A stretch of DNA of 64,000 bases, from the NCBI RefSeq assembly GCF_054482525.1, contig NZ_CM137006.1, one strand, 5' to 3'. A model generated the notes under the pieces. That model was not told the origin of the DNA. It worked only from the letters and a program-made list of their open reading frames with translations, and did no database searches. This document shows, one piece after another, positions 30,092 to 40,820 of this stretch; the first letter of the stretch is position 1; each line of letters opens with the position of its first letter. The position numbers and the translations under genes were made by a program.

Positions 30092-30167
30092 TCCTCTGTA
30101 GTTCAGTCGGTAGAACGGCGGACTGTTAATCCGTATGTCACTGGTTCGAGTCCAGTCAGAGGAGCCA
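30092..30167 (+). tRNA. asnW: tRNA-Asn (GUU); integration site of the downstream island
   Basis: tcctctgtagttcagtcggtagaacggcggactgttaatccgtatgtcactggttcgagtccagtcagaggagcca on + strand; name assigned from synteny with yeeO. Confidence 0.95.
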
Positions 30168-30171
30168 AATT
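30152..30171. repeat. attL-like direct repeat (3' end of tRNA-Asn plus 4 nt)
   Basis: ccagtcagaggagccaaatt is repeated perfectly at 40801..40820. Confidence 0.85.
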
Positions 30172-30328
30172 CAAGTTTTCATGCTTATCTGTACGTCTCT
30201 ATTTGTTTACGATTCAGTAAGTTAGCGTGAAAATCCTTCCCAGTGCGTATCTGGTTTTCTCTCTGCATCGGGATAATTTGGTGGTCAGATCTGGGGTCAG
30301 TTTGGTTCGATTCTGGAGTGACCCCCAA

Positions 30329-31591
30329 ATGTCTTTAAACGATTCTAAAATCCGCAAGTTAAAACCCTCTTCCCGTCCGGTAAAACTCTCCGACTCTCAC
30401 GGTCTGTATCTGCTCGTCAATCCGGGCGGTTCACGCATCTGGTATCTCAAATATCGTTTCAACGGAAAAGAATCCAGAGTCAGTCTTGGCGCATACCCGC
30501 TTGTCTCACTGGCAGAAGCCAGGCAACAGCGCGACGGTATCCGTAAGTTACTGGCGCAGAATATCAACCCGGCGCAGCAGCGCATGGCGGAGGAAGCGGC
30601 CTGCTCCCCTGAAAAGTGCTTTAAGGCAGTGGCGCTGGCCTGGCACAAAACCAACAAAAAATGGTCGGCTGATTATGCCGCCCGTATTCTCGCCAGTATG
30701 GAAAACCATATCTTCCCGGCGATTGGTCATCTGCCCGTTGCCACTCTTAAAACGCAGGATTTCACTGCTTTGTTGCGGGTTATCGAGGATAAAGGCTTTC
30801 TGGAAGTCGCGTCCCGAACCCGGCAGCAACTCAGCAACATCATGCGCTATGCCGTTCAGCAGGGGCTTACCGAAAGCAATCCGGCGCAGCATCTGGATGG
30901 CGTTGTCGCCTCACCCGTAAAGAACCACTACCCCGCGTTACTGCTGGAGCGGTTGCCCGAACTGCTTGGCCGCATCGGTGACTATCAGCAGGGCCGGGAG
31001 TTAACACGGCTGGCGGTGGTGCTGACGTTGCACCTGTTTATCCGTTCCAGCGAACTGCGTTTCGCCCGCTGGAGCGAGATCGATTTCAGGCACAAAATCT
31101 GGACCATCCCCGCCACCCGCGAGGCAATCGACAAAGTACGGTTTTCGGGGCGTGGCGCAAAAATACGTACCCCGCATATCGTGCCGCTCTCCCGCCAGGC
31201 GATTGCCATTCTGAAACAGATACAGGAGCTTTCCGGCCATCTGGATCTGGTGTTTCCCGGTGATCATAACTCGTACAAGCCAATGAGTGAAAACACCACC
31301 AACCGGGCGCTACGCCTGATGGGGTATGATACGAAAACTGAAATCTGCGGGCATGGACTCAGGGCGATGGCCTGTAGCGCCCTGGTGGAATCGGAGCTGT
31401 GGTCACGCGATACGGTGGAGCGGCAAATGAGCCACCAGGAGCGTAACAGCGTGCGGGCAGCCTATGTGCATAAAGCGGAGCATCTGGAGGCCAGAAAGGC
31501 CATGATGCAGTGGTGGTCGGATTATCTGGATGTGTGCCGCGAGGGGTATGTTGCGCCGTACATTTATGCCCGGCAGCATAAGGCAGCCTGA
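30329..31591 (+). CDS. int: P4-type tyrosine integrase
   Basis: ORF 30227..31591; start MSLNDSKIRKLKPSSRPVKLSDSHGLYLLVNPGGSRIWYLKYRFNGKE (DUF4102 arm-binding-like N-terminus); C-terminal catalytic region with HGLR...Y motifs; directly 3' of the tRNA. Confidence 0.88.
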   Translation: MSLNDSKIRKLKPSSRPVKLSDSHGLYLLVNPGGSRIWYLKYRFNGKESRVSLGAYPLVSLAEARQQRDGIRKLLAQNINPAQQRMAEEAACSPEKCFKAVALAWHKTNKKWSADYAARILASMENHIFPAIGHLPVATLKTQDFTALLRVIEDKGFLEVASRTRQQLSNIMRYAVQQGLTESNPAQHLDGVVASPVKNHYPALLLERLPELLGRIGDYQQGRELTRLAVVLTLHLFIRSSELRFARWSEIDFRHKIWTIPATREAIDKVRFSGRGAKIRTPHIVPLSRQAIAILKQIQELSGHLDLVFPGDHNSYKPMSENTTNRALRLMGYDTKTEICGHGLRAMACSALVESELWSRDTVERQMSHQERNSVRAAYVHKAEHLEARKAMMQWWSDYLDVCREGYVAPYIYARQHKAA

Positions 31592-31844
31592 ATCAGAAAT
31601 AGCGGAAATCATTAAAAATGTAAAAGCAGATCCTGATTGACCGGGATCTGCTTATTGTATTGAGAAGTATTACCATTTTTCTGTTATTATCAATCGGAAA
31701 GTATCTAAAAATATTTGTCCCCAAATAATTTTGGTGAAAACCAATCAATAAACCATTTATCAATAGGTAAGTACCGGAAATTATTCCAGTAGAATATTTT
31801 CAGGCGATTGCCTATTAATAAATACATTATTGATAGATAAGTGC

Positions 31845-31874
31845 CTTCTGTGATTTGCCCGCAAATCACAGAAG
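31845..31874. repeat. Perfect palindrome (14-bp arms, 2-bp spacer) in AT-rich structured region
   Basis: cttctgtgatttgc cc gcaaatcacagaag; followed by a ~50-bp segment (aaacctatcaatacgggatattttcacggaaataccaattaatac) that recurs after the second palindrome. Confidence 0.8.
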
Positions 31875-38700: not shown

Positions 38701-39910
38701 CGAGCCACTGGTCGAGAGCCGCTACCTCTACGACCCGCTGGGACGGCGAATGGCGAAAAGGGTATGGCGGCGGGAGCGTGACCTGACGGGGTGGATGTCG
38801 CTGTCGCGTAAACCGGAGGAGACATGGTACGGGTGGGACGGCGACAGGCTGACGACGGTGCAGACTAACACCACGCGTATCCAGACGGTGTACCAGCCGG
38901 GAAGCTTCACACCGCTCATCCGCATCGAAACAGACGTGACCGAACTGGAGAAAGCGCAGCGGCGAAGCCTGGCGGAGAAGTTACAGCAGGAAGGGAGTAA
39001 AGATGGTCACGGCGTGGTGTTCCCGCCTGAACTGGTGCGGCTGCTGGACAGGCTGGAGGGGGAAATCCGGGCAGACCGTGTGAGTGACGAAAGCCGGGCG
39101 TGGCTTGCGCAGTGCGGGCTGACGGTGGAGCGGCTGGCGGCACAGATCGAGCCAGTTTATTTGCCTGAGCGAAAAATACATCTTTATCACTGCGACCACC
39201 GGGGACTGCCGCTGGCGCTTATCAGTACTGAAGGTGCAACGGAATGGCGTGGGGAGTATGACGAGTGGGGGAATCAGCTTAATGAGGAGAACCCGCATCA
39301 TCTGTTCCAGCCATACCGCCTGCCGGGGCAGCAGTACGATGATGAATCGGGGCTGTGCTATAATCGTTATCGTTACTACGAGCCGTTACAAGGGAGGTAT
39401 ATTACACAGGACCCGATTGGGTTAAATGGGGGGTGGAATTTATATAAATATCCGCTGAATCCAATAAATTATGCAGATCCTCTTGGCTTAGCCGTAGATA
39501 TAAACCACTTCCCAGTCAACGAAGACATACGAAATTATGCAGAGAAAGTTTGGAATAATCCTAATATCATTACAATTGGAACACATGGTGATCCTCAATC
39601 AGTATATGATGAAAATTATAATAAGATAGATGTCAAGACATTAGCTAATGAGGTTCGAAATCATCCTAAATTTAAACCTGGAATGTCAGTAAGACTGTTA
39701 TCCTGTAATACAGGAAAAGGAAATAACTCTTATGCACAGCAATTGGCAGATGAACTAGGTGTGAGAGTCTATGCTCCTGACCAATATGACTGGTACTATT
39801 CAAATGGTAAGGTAGAGCCTTGGGGAGGATTTTATGATGCAAACAATCAATTGCAAATGGACACGAATCAGCCTGGACATGAGTTTACATTCAAGCGAAG
39901 GAGACCATAG
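35729..39910 (+). CDS. rhs: Rhs-family polymorphic toxin (N-terminal PAAR-like domain, YD repeats, Rhs core, variable C-terminal toxin domain)
   Basis: 1393-aa ORF; N-terminus [11 protein letters not shown]...[10 protein letters not shown] as in main-clade E. coli Rhs proteins; numerous YD repeats; core ends with the DPxGL motif (DPIGLNGGW...YADPLGL) followed by a low-GC tail. Confidence 0.93.
39491..39907 (+). other. Rhs C-terminal variable toxin domain (139 aa, function unknown)
   Basis: Begins right after DPLGL; abrupt shift from GC-rich core to AT-rich sequence; contains a His ([10 protein letters not shown]) and a Cys ([11 protein letters not shown]) each preceded by hydrophobic strands. 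Confidence 0.75.
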
Positions 39911-39912
39911 GT

Positions 39913-40515
39913 ATGAGGTATTTTCTCTTTATATTTATAACAATTCCCCTTATCTCTGGAGGTCATATGAGTAATGATAGCGAAAAGATAATATCAACAT
40001 ATTCGCTCAATTTTTTATCACCAGATGATGTGAGGAAGGAAGAACTTAAGGCATCACAAGGTGATAGTGATGCTGCATTTAAATTGTACAAATATTACCT
40101 TTTTTGCGAGCCAAAATCATACAGAAAACAGCACGAATGGTTAATAATATCGGCAAATAATGGAAATGCTATAGCTCAATATAACTTATCAAGAGAACTT
40201 GAGTCAGAAGGAAAAGTAGATGAATCAATACAATGGCTGAAAAAATCAGCGGAACATGGTAATAATTACGCACAATATCAGATGTCAAAATATTTATTAA
40301 AAATAGGTGATATTAGAGGATCGGAATATTATCTAAACTTATCTGCGGATAACGGATGTGTATTTGCAATAAAAGATATTATCAAAAATATGATGGGTAG
40401 TGGAAGGTACGATGACGCCCTCATTTGGGTTGAAAAATTGAAAAAATTGTATCCTGACACAAATACCGAACTTTACATACAAAAAATAACGCAGAAAAAA
40501 AAGCAATCCAAATAA
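39913..40515 (+). CDS. Putative Rhs immunity protein with Sel1-like repeats
   Basis: 200-aa ORF starting 2 nt after the rhs stop, AT-rich like the toxin tail; repeats of the A-x-Q-Y ... G ... W-L-K-K-S-A-E-x-G type resemble Sel1/TPR-like repeats. Alternative start at 39967 (ggagg SD; MSNDSEK...). Confidence 0.6.
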   Translation: MRYFLFIFITIPLISGGHMSNDSEKIISTYSLNFLSPDDVRKEELKASQGDSDAAFKLYKYYLFCEPKSYRKQHEWLIISANNGNAIAQYNLSRELESEGKVDESIQWLKKSAEHGNNYAQYQMSKYLLKIGDIRGSEYYLNLSADNGCVFAIKDIIKNMMGSGRYDDALIWVEKLKKLYPDTNTELYIQKITQKKKQSK

Positions 40516-40800
40516 TAATTATATATAATTACTCGCACAGAGTTACAGTATTGCAAGAAATATATCTAGCATATAAAGTCGCCGCCAGTAAAGATAAAGT
40601 ACTGTGTAATCCTTCCTCCCATATAGGGGTAAAAACTTAGCATCTAGTGCTCTCGACTTAATTTTTAGTATTTTCTCTGTGAAGTGACACTTCGTAGGAT
40701 TCAGTTCATGTTTACCAGAAAAAAGGTGGTCAATCTGGTGGTCTTGACAATCTCGATTTTTTTTAGCTTTCCAATCAGCCAGTTAATGGCTACGACGATC

Positions 40801-40820
40801 CCAGTCAGAGGAGCCAAATT
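40801..40820. repeat. attR-like direct repeat (copy of tRNA-Asn 3' end)
   Basis: ccagtcagaggagccaaatt, identical to 30152..30171; flanking bases partly similar to the tRNA flank. Confidence 0.85.

Follow-up and report, generated by a model that had tools for sequence, protein, structure and literature searches.

A 10.6 kb Rhs island with a P4-family integrase in the asnW tRNA gene of Escherichia coli SCU-102

The 64,000-nucleotide stretch of contig NZ_CM137006.1 (RefSeq assembly GCF_054482525.1) analyzed here, hereafter called the window, is 100% identical to the chromosome of Escherichia coli SCU-102 (NZ_CP051753.1), a human commensal isolate. It includes four identical tRNA-Asn(GTT) genes, as called by ARAGORN, in the order his-cob-asnV-nac-cbl-asnU-yeeO-asnW-(island)-yeeN-amn-shiA-...-asnT-mtfA. 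The subject of this report is the 10.6 kb island that follows asnW, between yeeO (28504-29991) and yeeN (41266-41982), and that carries an integrase gene, an Rhs toxin gene and a presumed immunity gene. The other three tRNA-Asn genes (asnV, asnU and asnT, at 25859, 28268 and 56060) are all island-free, as a first-pass annotation of the same DNA had noted. The island consists of a 5.5-kb backbone and a cargo slot. The features that define its borders, its integrase and its cargo are as follows:

30045-30073: asnW promoter-like site, from a promoter scan
30092-30167, + strand: tRNA-Asn (GTT), asnW (ARAGORN; Rfam tRNA, 72.6 bits)
30152-30171, + strand: attL core, CCAGTCAGAGGAGCCAAATT, made up of the last 16 nt of the tRNA plus AATT and followed by the island arm CAAGTTTTCATGCTTATC
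30329-31591, + strand: P4-family tyrosine integrase, 420 aa, an uninterrupted open reading frame (ORF) with the Pfam domains Arm-DNA-bind_3, Phage_int_M and Phage_integrase
35729-39490, + strand: Rhs core, residues 1-1254, ending in ...YADPLGL (NCBIfam RHS_core, 2595 bits; YD repeats; Rhs_assc_core); G+C 0.55-0.64
39491-39910, + strand: C-terminal toxin tip of Rhs, residues 1255-1393 (139 aa), a predicted clan-CD His/Cys protease (H1286, C1326); G+C about 0.36
39967-40515, + strand: presumed cognate immunity gene, tetratricopeptide repeat (TPR)/Sel1-like, 182 aa (start possibly at 39913), "tetratricopeptide repeat protein" in RefSeq; G+C about 0.32
40757-40800, + strand: right-end island arm, TTTAGCTTTCCAATCAGCCAGTTAATGGCTACGACGATC, present before the attR core of E. 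coli sister islands as well
40801-40820, + strand: attR core, running into the native sequence downstream of asnW, TTAGTTTTGAGACAT..., which is identical to the empty K-12-type site (locus L002)

The borders of the island are marked by a perfect 20-bp repeat. On the + strand of the window, CCAGTCAGAGGAGCCAAATT is found only at 30152 and 40801, and on the − strand it forms the ends of the other three tRNA-Asn genes. An exact repeat of this length is expected by chance about 0.002 times in 64 kb by our own rough estimate, for which no tool was used. Beyond the repeat, an imperfect likeness continues for 8 further bases (CAAGTTTT versus TTAGTTTT). In K-12-derived NEB Turbo, yeeO, asnW and yeeN are contiguous, and the alignment of K-12-like genomes to the window ends at 30179 and restarts at 40801. 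The empty asnW site (L002) reads tRNA-AATT-TTAGTTTTGAGAC, while attL of the window reads tRNA-AATT-CAAGTTTTCATGC, where the last part is the island arm, and attR consists of the island arm (..GGCTACGACGATC), the 20-bp core and TTAGTTTTGAGAC. Since the repeat coincides with the breakpoint of the empty-site alignments, it is a recombination junction and not a chance repeat. Insertion at the 3' end of the tRNA gene keeps asnW whole and leaves direct repeats of the tRNA end at both borders. The first-pass annotation had proposed just such a 3'-end insertion between 30152 and 40820, which turned out to be exact to the base, and had described yeeO and yeeN as contiguous with asnW in K-12, as is now seen in NEB Turbo.

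The integrase has the domain layout of the P4 type (PF13356, PF22022 and PF00589) and, over 414 aa, shares 50% of its residues with phage P4 Int (E = 2e-150). With the integrases of the pks (colibactin) island and the high-pathogenicity island (HPI; yersiniabactin), known from E. coli, Yersinia and Klebsiella, it is colinear and has 70.7% protein identity. At the DNA level, the pks integrase gene is about 72% identical; a figure of about 85% for the pks locus is too high because it includes the yeeO flank common to both. All catalytic residues (Arg, His-x-x-Arg, His and Tyr) are kept, with the motifs RSSELR, HGLR, SHQER and AAY aligning with those of the pks and HPI integrases, and the apparently intact P4-family integrase described beside the tRNA in the first-pass annotation stands. 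The integrases of related islands at the other asn genes (sister islands) are 96% identical to that of the window. Judged by sequence, the island integrase is a separate clade within the asn-tDNA integrases of the HPI/pks kind, with 96% identity inside the clade against 71% to pks and HPI. Sampling one genome from each species yielded 79 loci, and every one of the 66 integrase relatives from other species with at least 65% identity sits some 175 bp downstream from the 3' end of a tRNA-Asn gene, wherever the contig is long enough to tell. The integrase of E. coli O145:H28 strain 12E115 (L005) has HGLK instead of HGLR; it is annotated as intact but may be inactive.

The distribution of the island was determined in 5,426 complete E. 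coli genomes. In most of these, asnW is empty, with the sequence joining exactly at the repeat. At least 80% of the island is held by 207 genomes, and 65-67 have it at asnW with the same immunity-attR-yeeN junction; the first number is larger because sister islands are present at other asn genes or have other toxin tips. At least 80% of the non-Rhs backbone is found in 267 genomes, at 85-100% identity. Occupancy by this type of integrase is roughly 63 genomes for asnW, 18 for asnU, 70 for asnV and 300 for asnT, as estimated from per-gene junction queries after subtraction of the 80-90% identity band, which represents pks- or HPI-type integrases. The segment is therefore variable in E. coli, and the repeat behaves as its junction.

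Sister islands are found in asnU of strain AW1.7 (L010), in asnT of CH4790, STEC383 and an O145:H28 strain (L005, L011, L012) and in asnV of TUM14664. The same attL island arm follows asnU, asnV and asnT in these islands. In the asnU and asnT islands, attR again begins with this family's right-end arm and the 20-bp core, after which comes the sequence natively found downstream of whichever tRNA gene is occupied, a combination that shows integrase-mediated insertion. The asnV island of TUM14664 retains the attL arm, but a matching attR was not found at its right end. From the sequences, only conservative site-specific recombination between the island attP and the tRNA 3' end would yield this pattern of junctions. 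The right-end arm is also kept in loci from Salmonella, Entomohabitans, Phytobacter, Enterobacter and Klebsiella grimontii. Compared with strain UID2309220033, mismatches per 500 bp number 0-1 in the island and 4-28 in its flanks, a contrast in divergence that supports horizontal spread. Partial tRNA-Asn 3' ends are found before island arms, with swapped native downstream sequences, in Escherichia whittamii (L017, at 3251 and 9825) and in L003 (at 3683). These point to identical asn-tDNAs having undergone inversions or rearrangements with one another, of the sort that has been reported for pks configurations.

The element at asnW is best described as a small genomic island that entered the chromosome site-specifically by means of its own integrase and that carries an Rhs gene with a predicted protease-toxin tip and a presumed immunity gene as cargo, a reading to which we assign a probability of about 0.85. 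Integration would have come about by recombination between the island attP and the 3' end of asnW, catalyzed by the P4-family integrase. Once the island is integrated, transcription of the integrase gene may start at the asnW promoter, as has been described for pks and HPI. The host's type VI secretion system (T6SS) would then fire Rhs into neighboring bacteria, while the immunity protein would protect kin. Past mobility by way of the integrase is demonstrated at the level of the junction sequences; present-day excision, the route of transfer from cell to cell, dependence on a T6SS and the activity of the toxin are what we infer from them and from the gene content.

The Rhs gene as a whole spans 35729-39910 and encodes 1393 aa, with an RHS_core match of 2595 bits against a cut-off of 2000. 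The protein has YD_repeat_2x matches, an Rhs_assc_core at residues 1177-1254 and a DPxGL-type cleavage motif at the end of the cage, and it matches the solved T6SS Rhs cages of Tse5 (7.5e-118) and 7q97 (1.3e-83). Its sequence places it among the clade-I (Enterobacteriaceae) polymorphic toxins. The G+C content falls from about 0.6 in the Rhs core to about 0.33 in the tip and the immunity gene. The ORF at 39967-40515 is presumed to be the immunity gene because it comes directly after the toxin tip, although its product has only weak TPR/Sel1 matches in Pfam, and its presence implies that the target of the toxin is bacterial. The island does, as first annotated, contain a full-length Rhs toxin/immunity module.

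Other pairs of tip and immunity gene, of TPR, NTF2 and 130-aa types, are found in the sister islands. Between the asnU island and the window, tip and immunity gene are 98.9% identical and the Rhs core 89.6%; on the sequence evidence, a conserved tip on a diverged core is the classic pattern of tip swapping. Within the Rhs core (window positions 37000-38000 and 38000-39000, compared with L007/L008 and L009), patches with 15-57 mismatches per 500 bp interrupt copies that are otherwise near-identical. These patches look like gene-conversion tracts from other rhs paralogues.

Sequence searches of Pfam, NCBIfam, PHROG and PDB gave nothing significant for the toxin tip, so its identity was resolved by fold comparison only. 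An exhaustive search of a representative library gave 1,189 homologues and a word-indexed search 7, and the domain is found not only at the C-termini of Rhs proteins but also repeated within giant proteins. The AlphaFold2 model made from 31 homologues (pLDDT 97.6) predicts a caspase-like α/β fold with a His-then-Cys dyad, of which His32 and Cys72 (H1286 and C1326 of Rhs) are invariant. The model can also be superposed, with lower scores, on gingipain, CHAT domains and caspases. Peptidase_C80 or DUF4347 is matched at E ≤ 0.1 by only 3-4 of the 31 homologues, and the tip of the window has no Pfam match. Going by the model, the tip shares the C80/DUF4347 fold but is not a family member by sequence, and it is predicted to be a clan-CD protease toxin of the C80/Tce type. 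Proteins of 2.8-6.6 thousand residues (P0011, P0012, P0013, P0019, P0021) contain 3-6 internal repeats of the tip domain, which is odd for a toxin domain.

Between the integrase and the Rhs gene lies the rest of the backbone, starting with about 1.3 kb of A+T-rich non-coding DNA after the integrase. Its features are as follows:

31688-32125: non-coding, A+T-rich DNA in which TATCAATAGG-like repeats are clustered in either orientation, together with a degenerate duplication of 131 nt
32929-33645, − strand: int2, a second tyrosine-recombinase gene, a frameshifted pseudogene here ("frameshifted" in RefSeq)
33701-33828, − strand: EFASI RNA motif (Rfam RF02957, 100.8 bits; gathering threshold 51.2), immediately upstream of the int2 gene
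34496-34750, − strand: Ner/SfsB-like helix-turn-helix (HTH) protein, 84 aa (NCBIfam SfsB, 110 bits, below the cut-off of 150; PHROG 769, transcriptional repressor, 3.9e-29)
34747-35207, − strand: gene for a 153-aa backbone protein, frameshifted here ("frameshifted" in RefSeq)
35261-35349, − strand: C4-type antisense RNA like that of immI in phages P1 and P7 (Rfam RF01695, 62.2 bits; gathering threshold 45), upstream of the operon of the 153-aa and HTH genes
35394-35446, − strand: a1/b1-like target motif of C4 RNA (Rfam RF03163, 43.8 bits, below the gathering threshold of 46.7), overlapping an isrK-like match (45.2 bits against 50)

Five of the 13 TATCAATAGG-like matches in the window fall within the roughly 400 bp at 31688-32125. 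The cluster is conserved in sister islands of Escherichia, though not in other genera, and could represent protein-binding sites, iterons or an origin of transfer (oriT). In sister islands, int2 is intact and encodes 294 aa, with Pfam matches to Phage_int_SAM_2 and Integrase_1 in the L010 copy. The EFASI RNA appears to belong to the conserved island backbone. The 153-aa protein, searched as the intact L010 copy, had no match in Pfam, PHROG or NCBIfam, and its gene adjoins the HTH gene in about 15 genera. The C4 RNA and a1/b1-like motif in front of the operon of the 153-aa and Ner-like proteins recall the immI control unit of phages P1 and P7, and we take the arrangement to be of the same sort, here within an island that is not a phage.

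The module of integrase, int2, HTH gene and 153-aa gene is widespread in the Enterobacterales. It recurs in Escherichia whittamii, E. albertii, Salmonella and Citrobacter, and also in Kluyvera, Phytobacter, Klebsiella indica, Entomohabitans, Tatumella, Mixta and Pantoea. The cargo there consists mostly of anti-phage systems instead of Rhs (L018, L020, L021, L024, L025, L027): Lamassu in Entomohabitans, Druantia type II (DruM/DruF) with PDC-S21 in Citrobacter werkmanii, PDC-S06 in Phytobacter, and a GajB-like helicase with a ThiF-like protein in Kluyvera. Mixta and Tenebrionibacter have Druantia-matching ORFs, judged by N-terminal similarity only. One C. werkmanii locus has a different Rhs in the cargo slot. 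In E. coli O145:H28 12E115 (L005, 14262-28830, at asnT), the backbone is followed by a HigA antitoxin gene, tssG, tssF, vgrG and PAAR genes up to an asnT attR border. Judged by these comparisons of gene content, a modular platform exists of which the island is a variant with its own cargo, rather than a dedicated Rhs vehicle.

The backbone was not found in plasmid or phage records, and the similarity to phages, P4 int included, is at the level of the integrase only. The best plasmid match, "plasmid unnamed1" of Salmonella serovar India (NZ_CP022016.1; L016, 473 kb), was rejected, as it carries amn and other chromosomal genes. This record, which is typed as a non-mobilizable plasmid, holds an asn-tDNA island region and is probably a chromosome fragment or a chromid. 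A more far-reaching proposal, which we put forward tentatively and consider unlikely, is that the backbone defines an unnamed, widespread family of minimal integrative elements that can use any asn-tDNA, in which an immI-style RNA switch would time excision on a helper phage or conjugative element and the conflict cargo would be interchangeable (Rhs and T6SS effectors in Escherichia; Lamassu, Druantia and PDC systems elsewhere). If true, interbacterial toxins and anti-phage systems would be carried by one and the same mobile platform.

Two other features of the window deserve mention. A gene for a YeeJ-type inverse autotransporter with Ig-like domains (2870 aa, 47135-55747, − strand) lies about 310 bp from the unoccupied asnT and is uninterrupted; in several other genomes (L004, L011, L012) the same gene is frameshifted or truncated by island remnants. 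A copy of IS1397 (IS3 family) is found between msrQ and zinT, at 58777-60125.

Several results weigh against the proposed scheme, first of all at the step of toxin delivery. SCU-102 has a T6SS cluster (tssA-tssB/hcp/vgrG/Rhs), but the vgrG in it contains an internal stop and carries a pseudogene annotation (L097 15471-17579; record 835470-837578), which raises the question of which spike protein would carry the island Rhs. No vgrG or adaptor gene was found in the island, and the similarity of the Rhs N-terminus to PAAR proteins is insignificant (E = 0.3-0.5). Delivery of the island Rhs by a T6SS is put forward as the presumed route. The second of two adjacent Rhs genes in the SCU-102 cluster is also broken. 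A full-length copy of the island, with a reported identity of 100.0%, is present in strain PCN033, for which a functional T6SS has been reported (PMC6730261).

The remaining objections concern mobility. No relaxase, replication or packaging gene was found among the island ORFs in NCBIfam and PHROG scans. Nor was a directionality factor of the AlpA, Xis or Hef type found in the scanned backbone ORFs, a set made up mostly of ORFs of at least 60 aa and in which the Ner/SfsB-like protein is the sole HTH protein; such a factor is common in the family of P4-type tRNA islands but not obligatory. The predicted attP junction, as a 54-nt degenerate pattern, had 0 matches in metagenome contigs, a result that is uninformative rather than negative, since assembled contigs are a weak test. 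Both int2 and the 153-aa gene are frameshifted in this copy, and the integrases of many relatives are pseudogenes (L003, L004, L007, L008, L011-L013), which, on the annotated sequences, suggests decay of the family in E. coli. The low-divergence tract seen against UID2309220033 extends 1.1 kb into yeeO in that one comparison, so some of the spread would have come about by homologous recombination of the flanks and not by the integrase. The first-pass annotation had suggested that the island could be a mobilizable vehicle for an interbacterial toxin. Mobility in the past is upheld, but current mobilizability is less certain, given that no excisionase, relaxase or packaging genes were found, that two backbone genes are pseudogenes and that many related integrases are dead.

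Much of this would also fit a frozen relic: an island that did integrate site-specifically in the past, but of which this copy is now immobile, its distribution being due to vertical descent and to homologous recombination of large chromosomal fragments, as proposed for the HPI of E. coli. We take this possibility seriously and put it at somewhat less than an even chance. It would account for the missing excisionase and transfer genes, for the two pseudogenes of the backbone and the many relatives with a dead integrase, for the clean tract that runs into yeeO (L009) and, for what that weak test is worth, for the attP junction that was not found in metagenome contigs. On the other hand, the integrase of this copy is intact with all of its catalytic motifs, the two att cores match perfectly, conservation of the attR arm extends across genera and the family has reached all four asn genes. 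Related asn-tDNA islands can, moreover, excise without a functional directionality factor (PMC8844411).

Alternatively, the island might be a hitcher that depends on a helper. In that case, the backbone would be satellite-like, and the C4 unit would sense a P1-like phage or a conjugative element of the asn-tDNA (ICEEc1/ICEKp) and trigger excision and transfer by way of an undetected oriT or pac in the A+T-rich repeats. The C4 RNA, which exceeds its gathering threshold and is accompanied by an a1/b1-like motif upstream of the operon of the 153-aa and Ner-like genes, speaks for such a switch, as do the conserved repeat cluster at 31688-32125 and a backbone that is conserved across many genera with swapped cargo; islands that have only an oriT are also reported to be common (bioRxiv 10.64898/2026.01.13.699239). 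We nevertheless find this scenario doubtful: no pac, primase or capsid-redirecting gene was identified, nor was an oriT, for which no search was possible; conservation of the repeat cluster stops at Escherichia, the backbone is missing from phage and plasmid records and the 153-aa gene is broken in this copy. That rhs arrived by "transposition" or duplication through recombination between Rhs repeats, with the integrase as an unrelated neighbor, is very improbable, even though Jackson et al. (2009) ascribed the rhs loci of E. coli, including positions 7 and 8 located here, to transposition and lateral transfer (PMC2935791) and the high-divergence patches of the core indicate gene conversion with other rhs copies, since attL and attR enclose integrase, backbone, Rhs and immunity gene as one unit, all of which are jointly absent from empty sites and recur as the same package at four tRNA genes.

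Read as a site-specifically integrated island with Rhs cargo, the element has well-known relatives. Islands that occupy asn tRNA genes by means of a P4-type integrase are long established and include HPI, pks, ICEKp and the ROD21-like islands. As in pks and HPI, the integrase lies directly downstream of an asn tRNA gene, and short repeats are derived from the tRNA 3' end; the attL arms of those islands also share ...TTTCATGC... with this one. In contrast, pks and HPI are 35-54 kb in size, encode siderophore or genotoxin pathways and are in some cases linked to conjugation modules, whereas this island is 10.6 kb, with a backbone of int2, EFASI, C4 RNA and Ner-like gene and an Rhs cargo. Like this family, pks and HPI use several identical asn genes, and 17-bp direct repeats were reported for pks (PMC8209727). 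The four tRNA-Asn sites are thus contested between the Rhs islands and those for yersiniabactin and colibactin.

Three other identities were considered and rejected. No alpha primase, sid, psu, delta or cos of a P4-like satellite was detected, and a PHROG scan of the backbone ORFs gives only integrase and repressor. For an integrative and conjugative element (ICE) or an integrative and mobilizable element (IME), all ORFs of at least 100 aa are accounted for and none is a relaxase or part of a type IV secretion system, while oriT could not be searched for. The ROD21-like (EARL) islands are set apart by gene content, as no ORF of the SEN1998 type, or otherwise like a recombination directionality factor, was found.

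Rhs loci are usually treated as fixed chromosomal loci, according to the first-pass annotation, which is only partly true. In Salmonella, Rhs loci are known on genomic islands (SPI-6, ROD9), and in E. coli, rhs "position 7" (yeeO-cobT) and "position 8" (yodB-yeeJ) were already cataloged in 2009, with no tRNA or integrase linked to them (PMC2935791). These two positions are the asn-tDNA sites of the present region, and site-specific integration would be a testable mechanism for the origin of some E. coli rhs loci that were cataloged as "transposed" at the time. SPI-6 is a large T6SS island, unlike the one described here, and the likeness consists of Rhs and immunity genes on an acquired island. 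Another parallel is the T6SS element Aux3 of Vibrio cholerae, which reportedly carries an effector/immunity pair on an att-flanked, integrase-bearing and excisable element; Aux3 is, however, said to be prophage-like in origin and to have a different integrase and site and a non-Rhs effector.

The predicted toxin tip can be compared with Tce1 and Tce2 of Pseudomonas aeruginosa, which were described in 2026 as putative cysteine-protease T6SS effectors; Tce2 is reported to be toxic to yeast, and no immunity genes are found near tce1 or tce2 (PMC13323088). Sequence identity between the tip and either these proteins or C80 domains (the cysteine protease domains of MARTX, TcdA and TcdB) is 8-17%, with sub-threshold Pfam matches only. 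Unlike Tce1 and Tce2, the tip is borne on an Rhs protein and has an adjacent immunity gene, and it would add an Rhs-borne, immunity-paired member to the new class of C80/Tce-like T6SS protease effectors.

Our literature searches (asnW or tRNA-Asn with Rhs and integrase) found no description of this island or its backbone. What is new is the recognition of a cross-genus backbone as a platform for conflict cargo and, as predicted from the model, a C80/Tce-like protease toxin on an Rhs protein. The island is real and well delimited, and it is of a fairly ordinary kind with an unusual cargo. Mobile defense islands at E. coli hotspots (PMC10121019) and P4-like satellites (PMC9122126) have the same organization of an integrase-bearing platform with a swappable slot for conflict cargo. 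The island differs from the defense islands in that its cargo in E. coli is an interbacterial toxin and not an anti-phage system; a single integration backbone that carries one or the other depending on the genus links the two kinds of conflict cargo.

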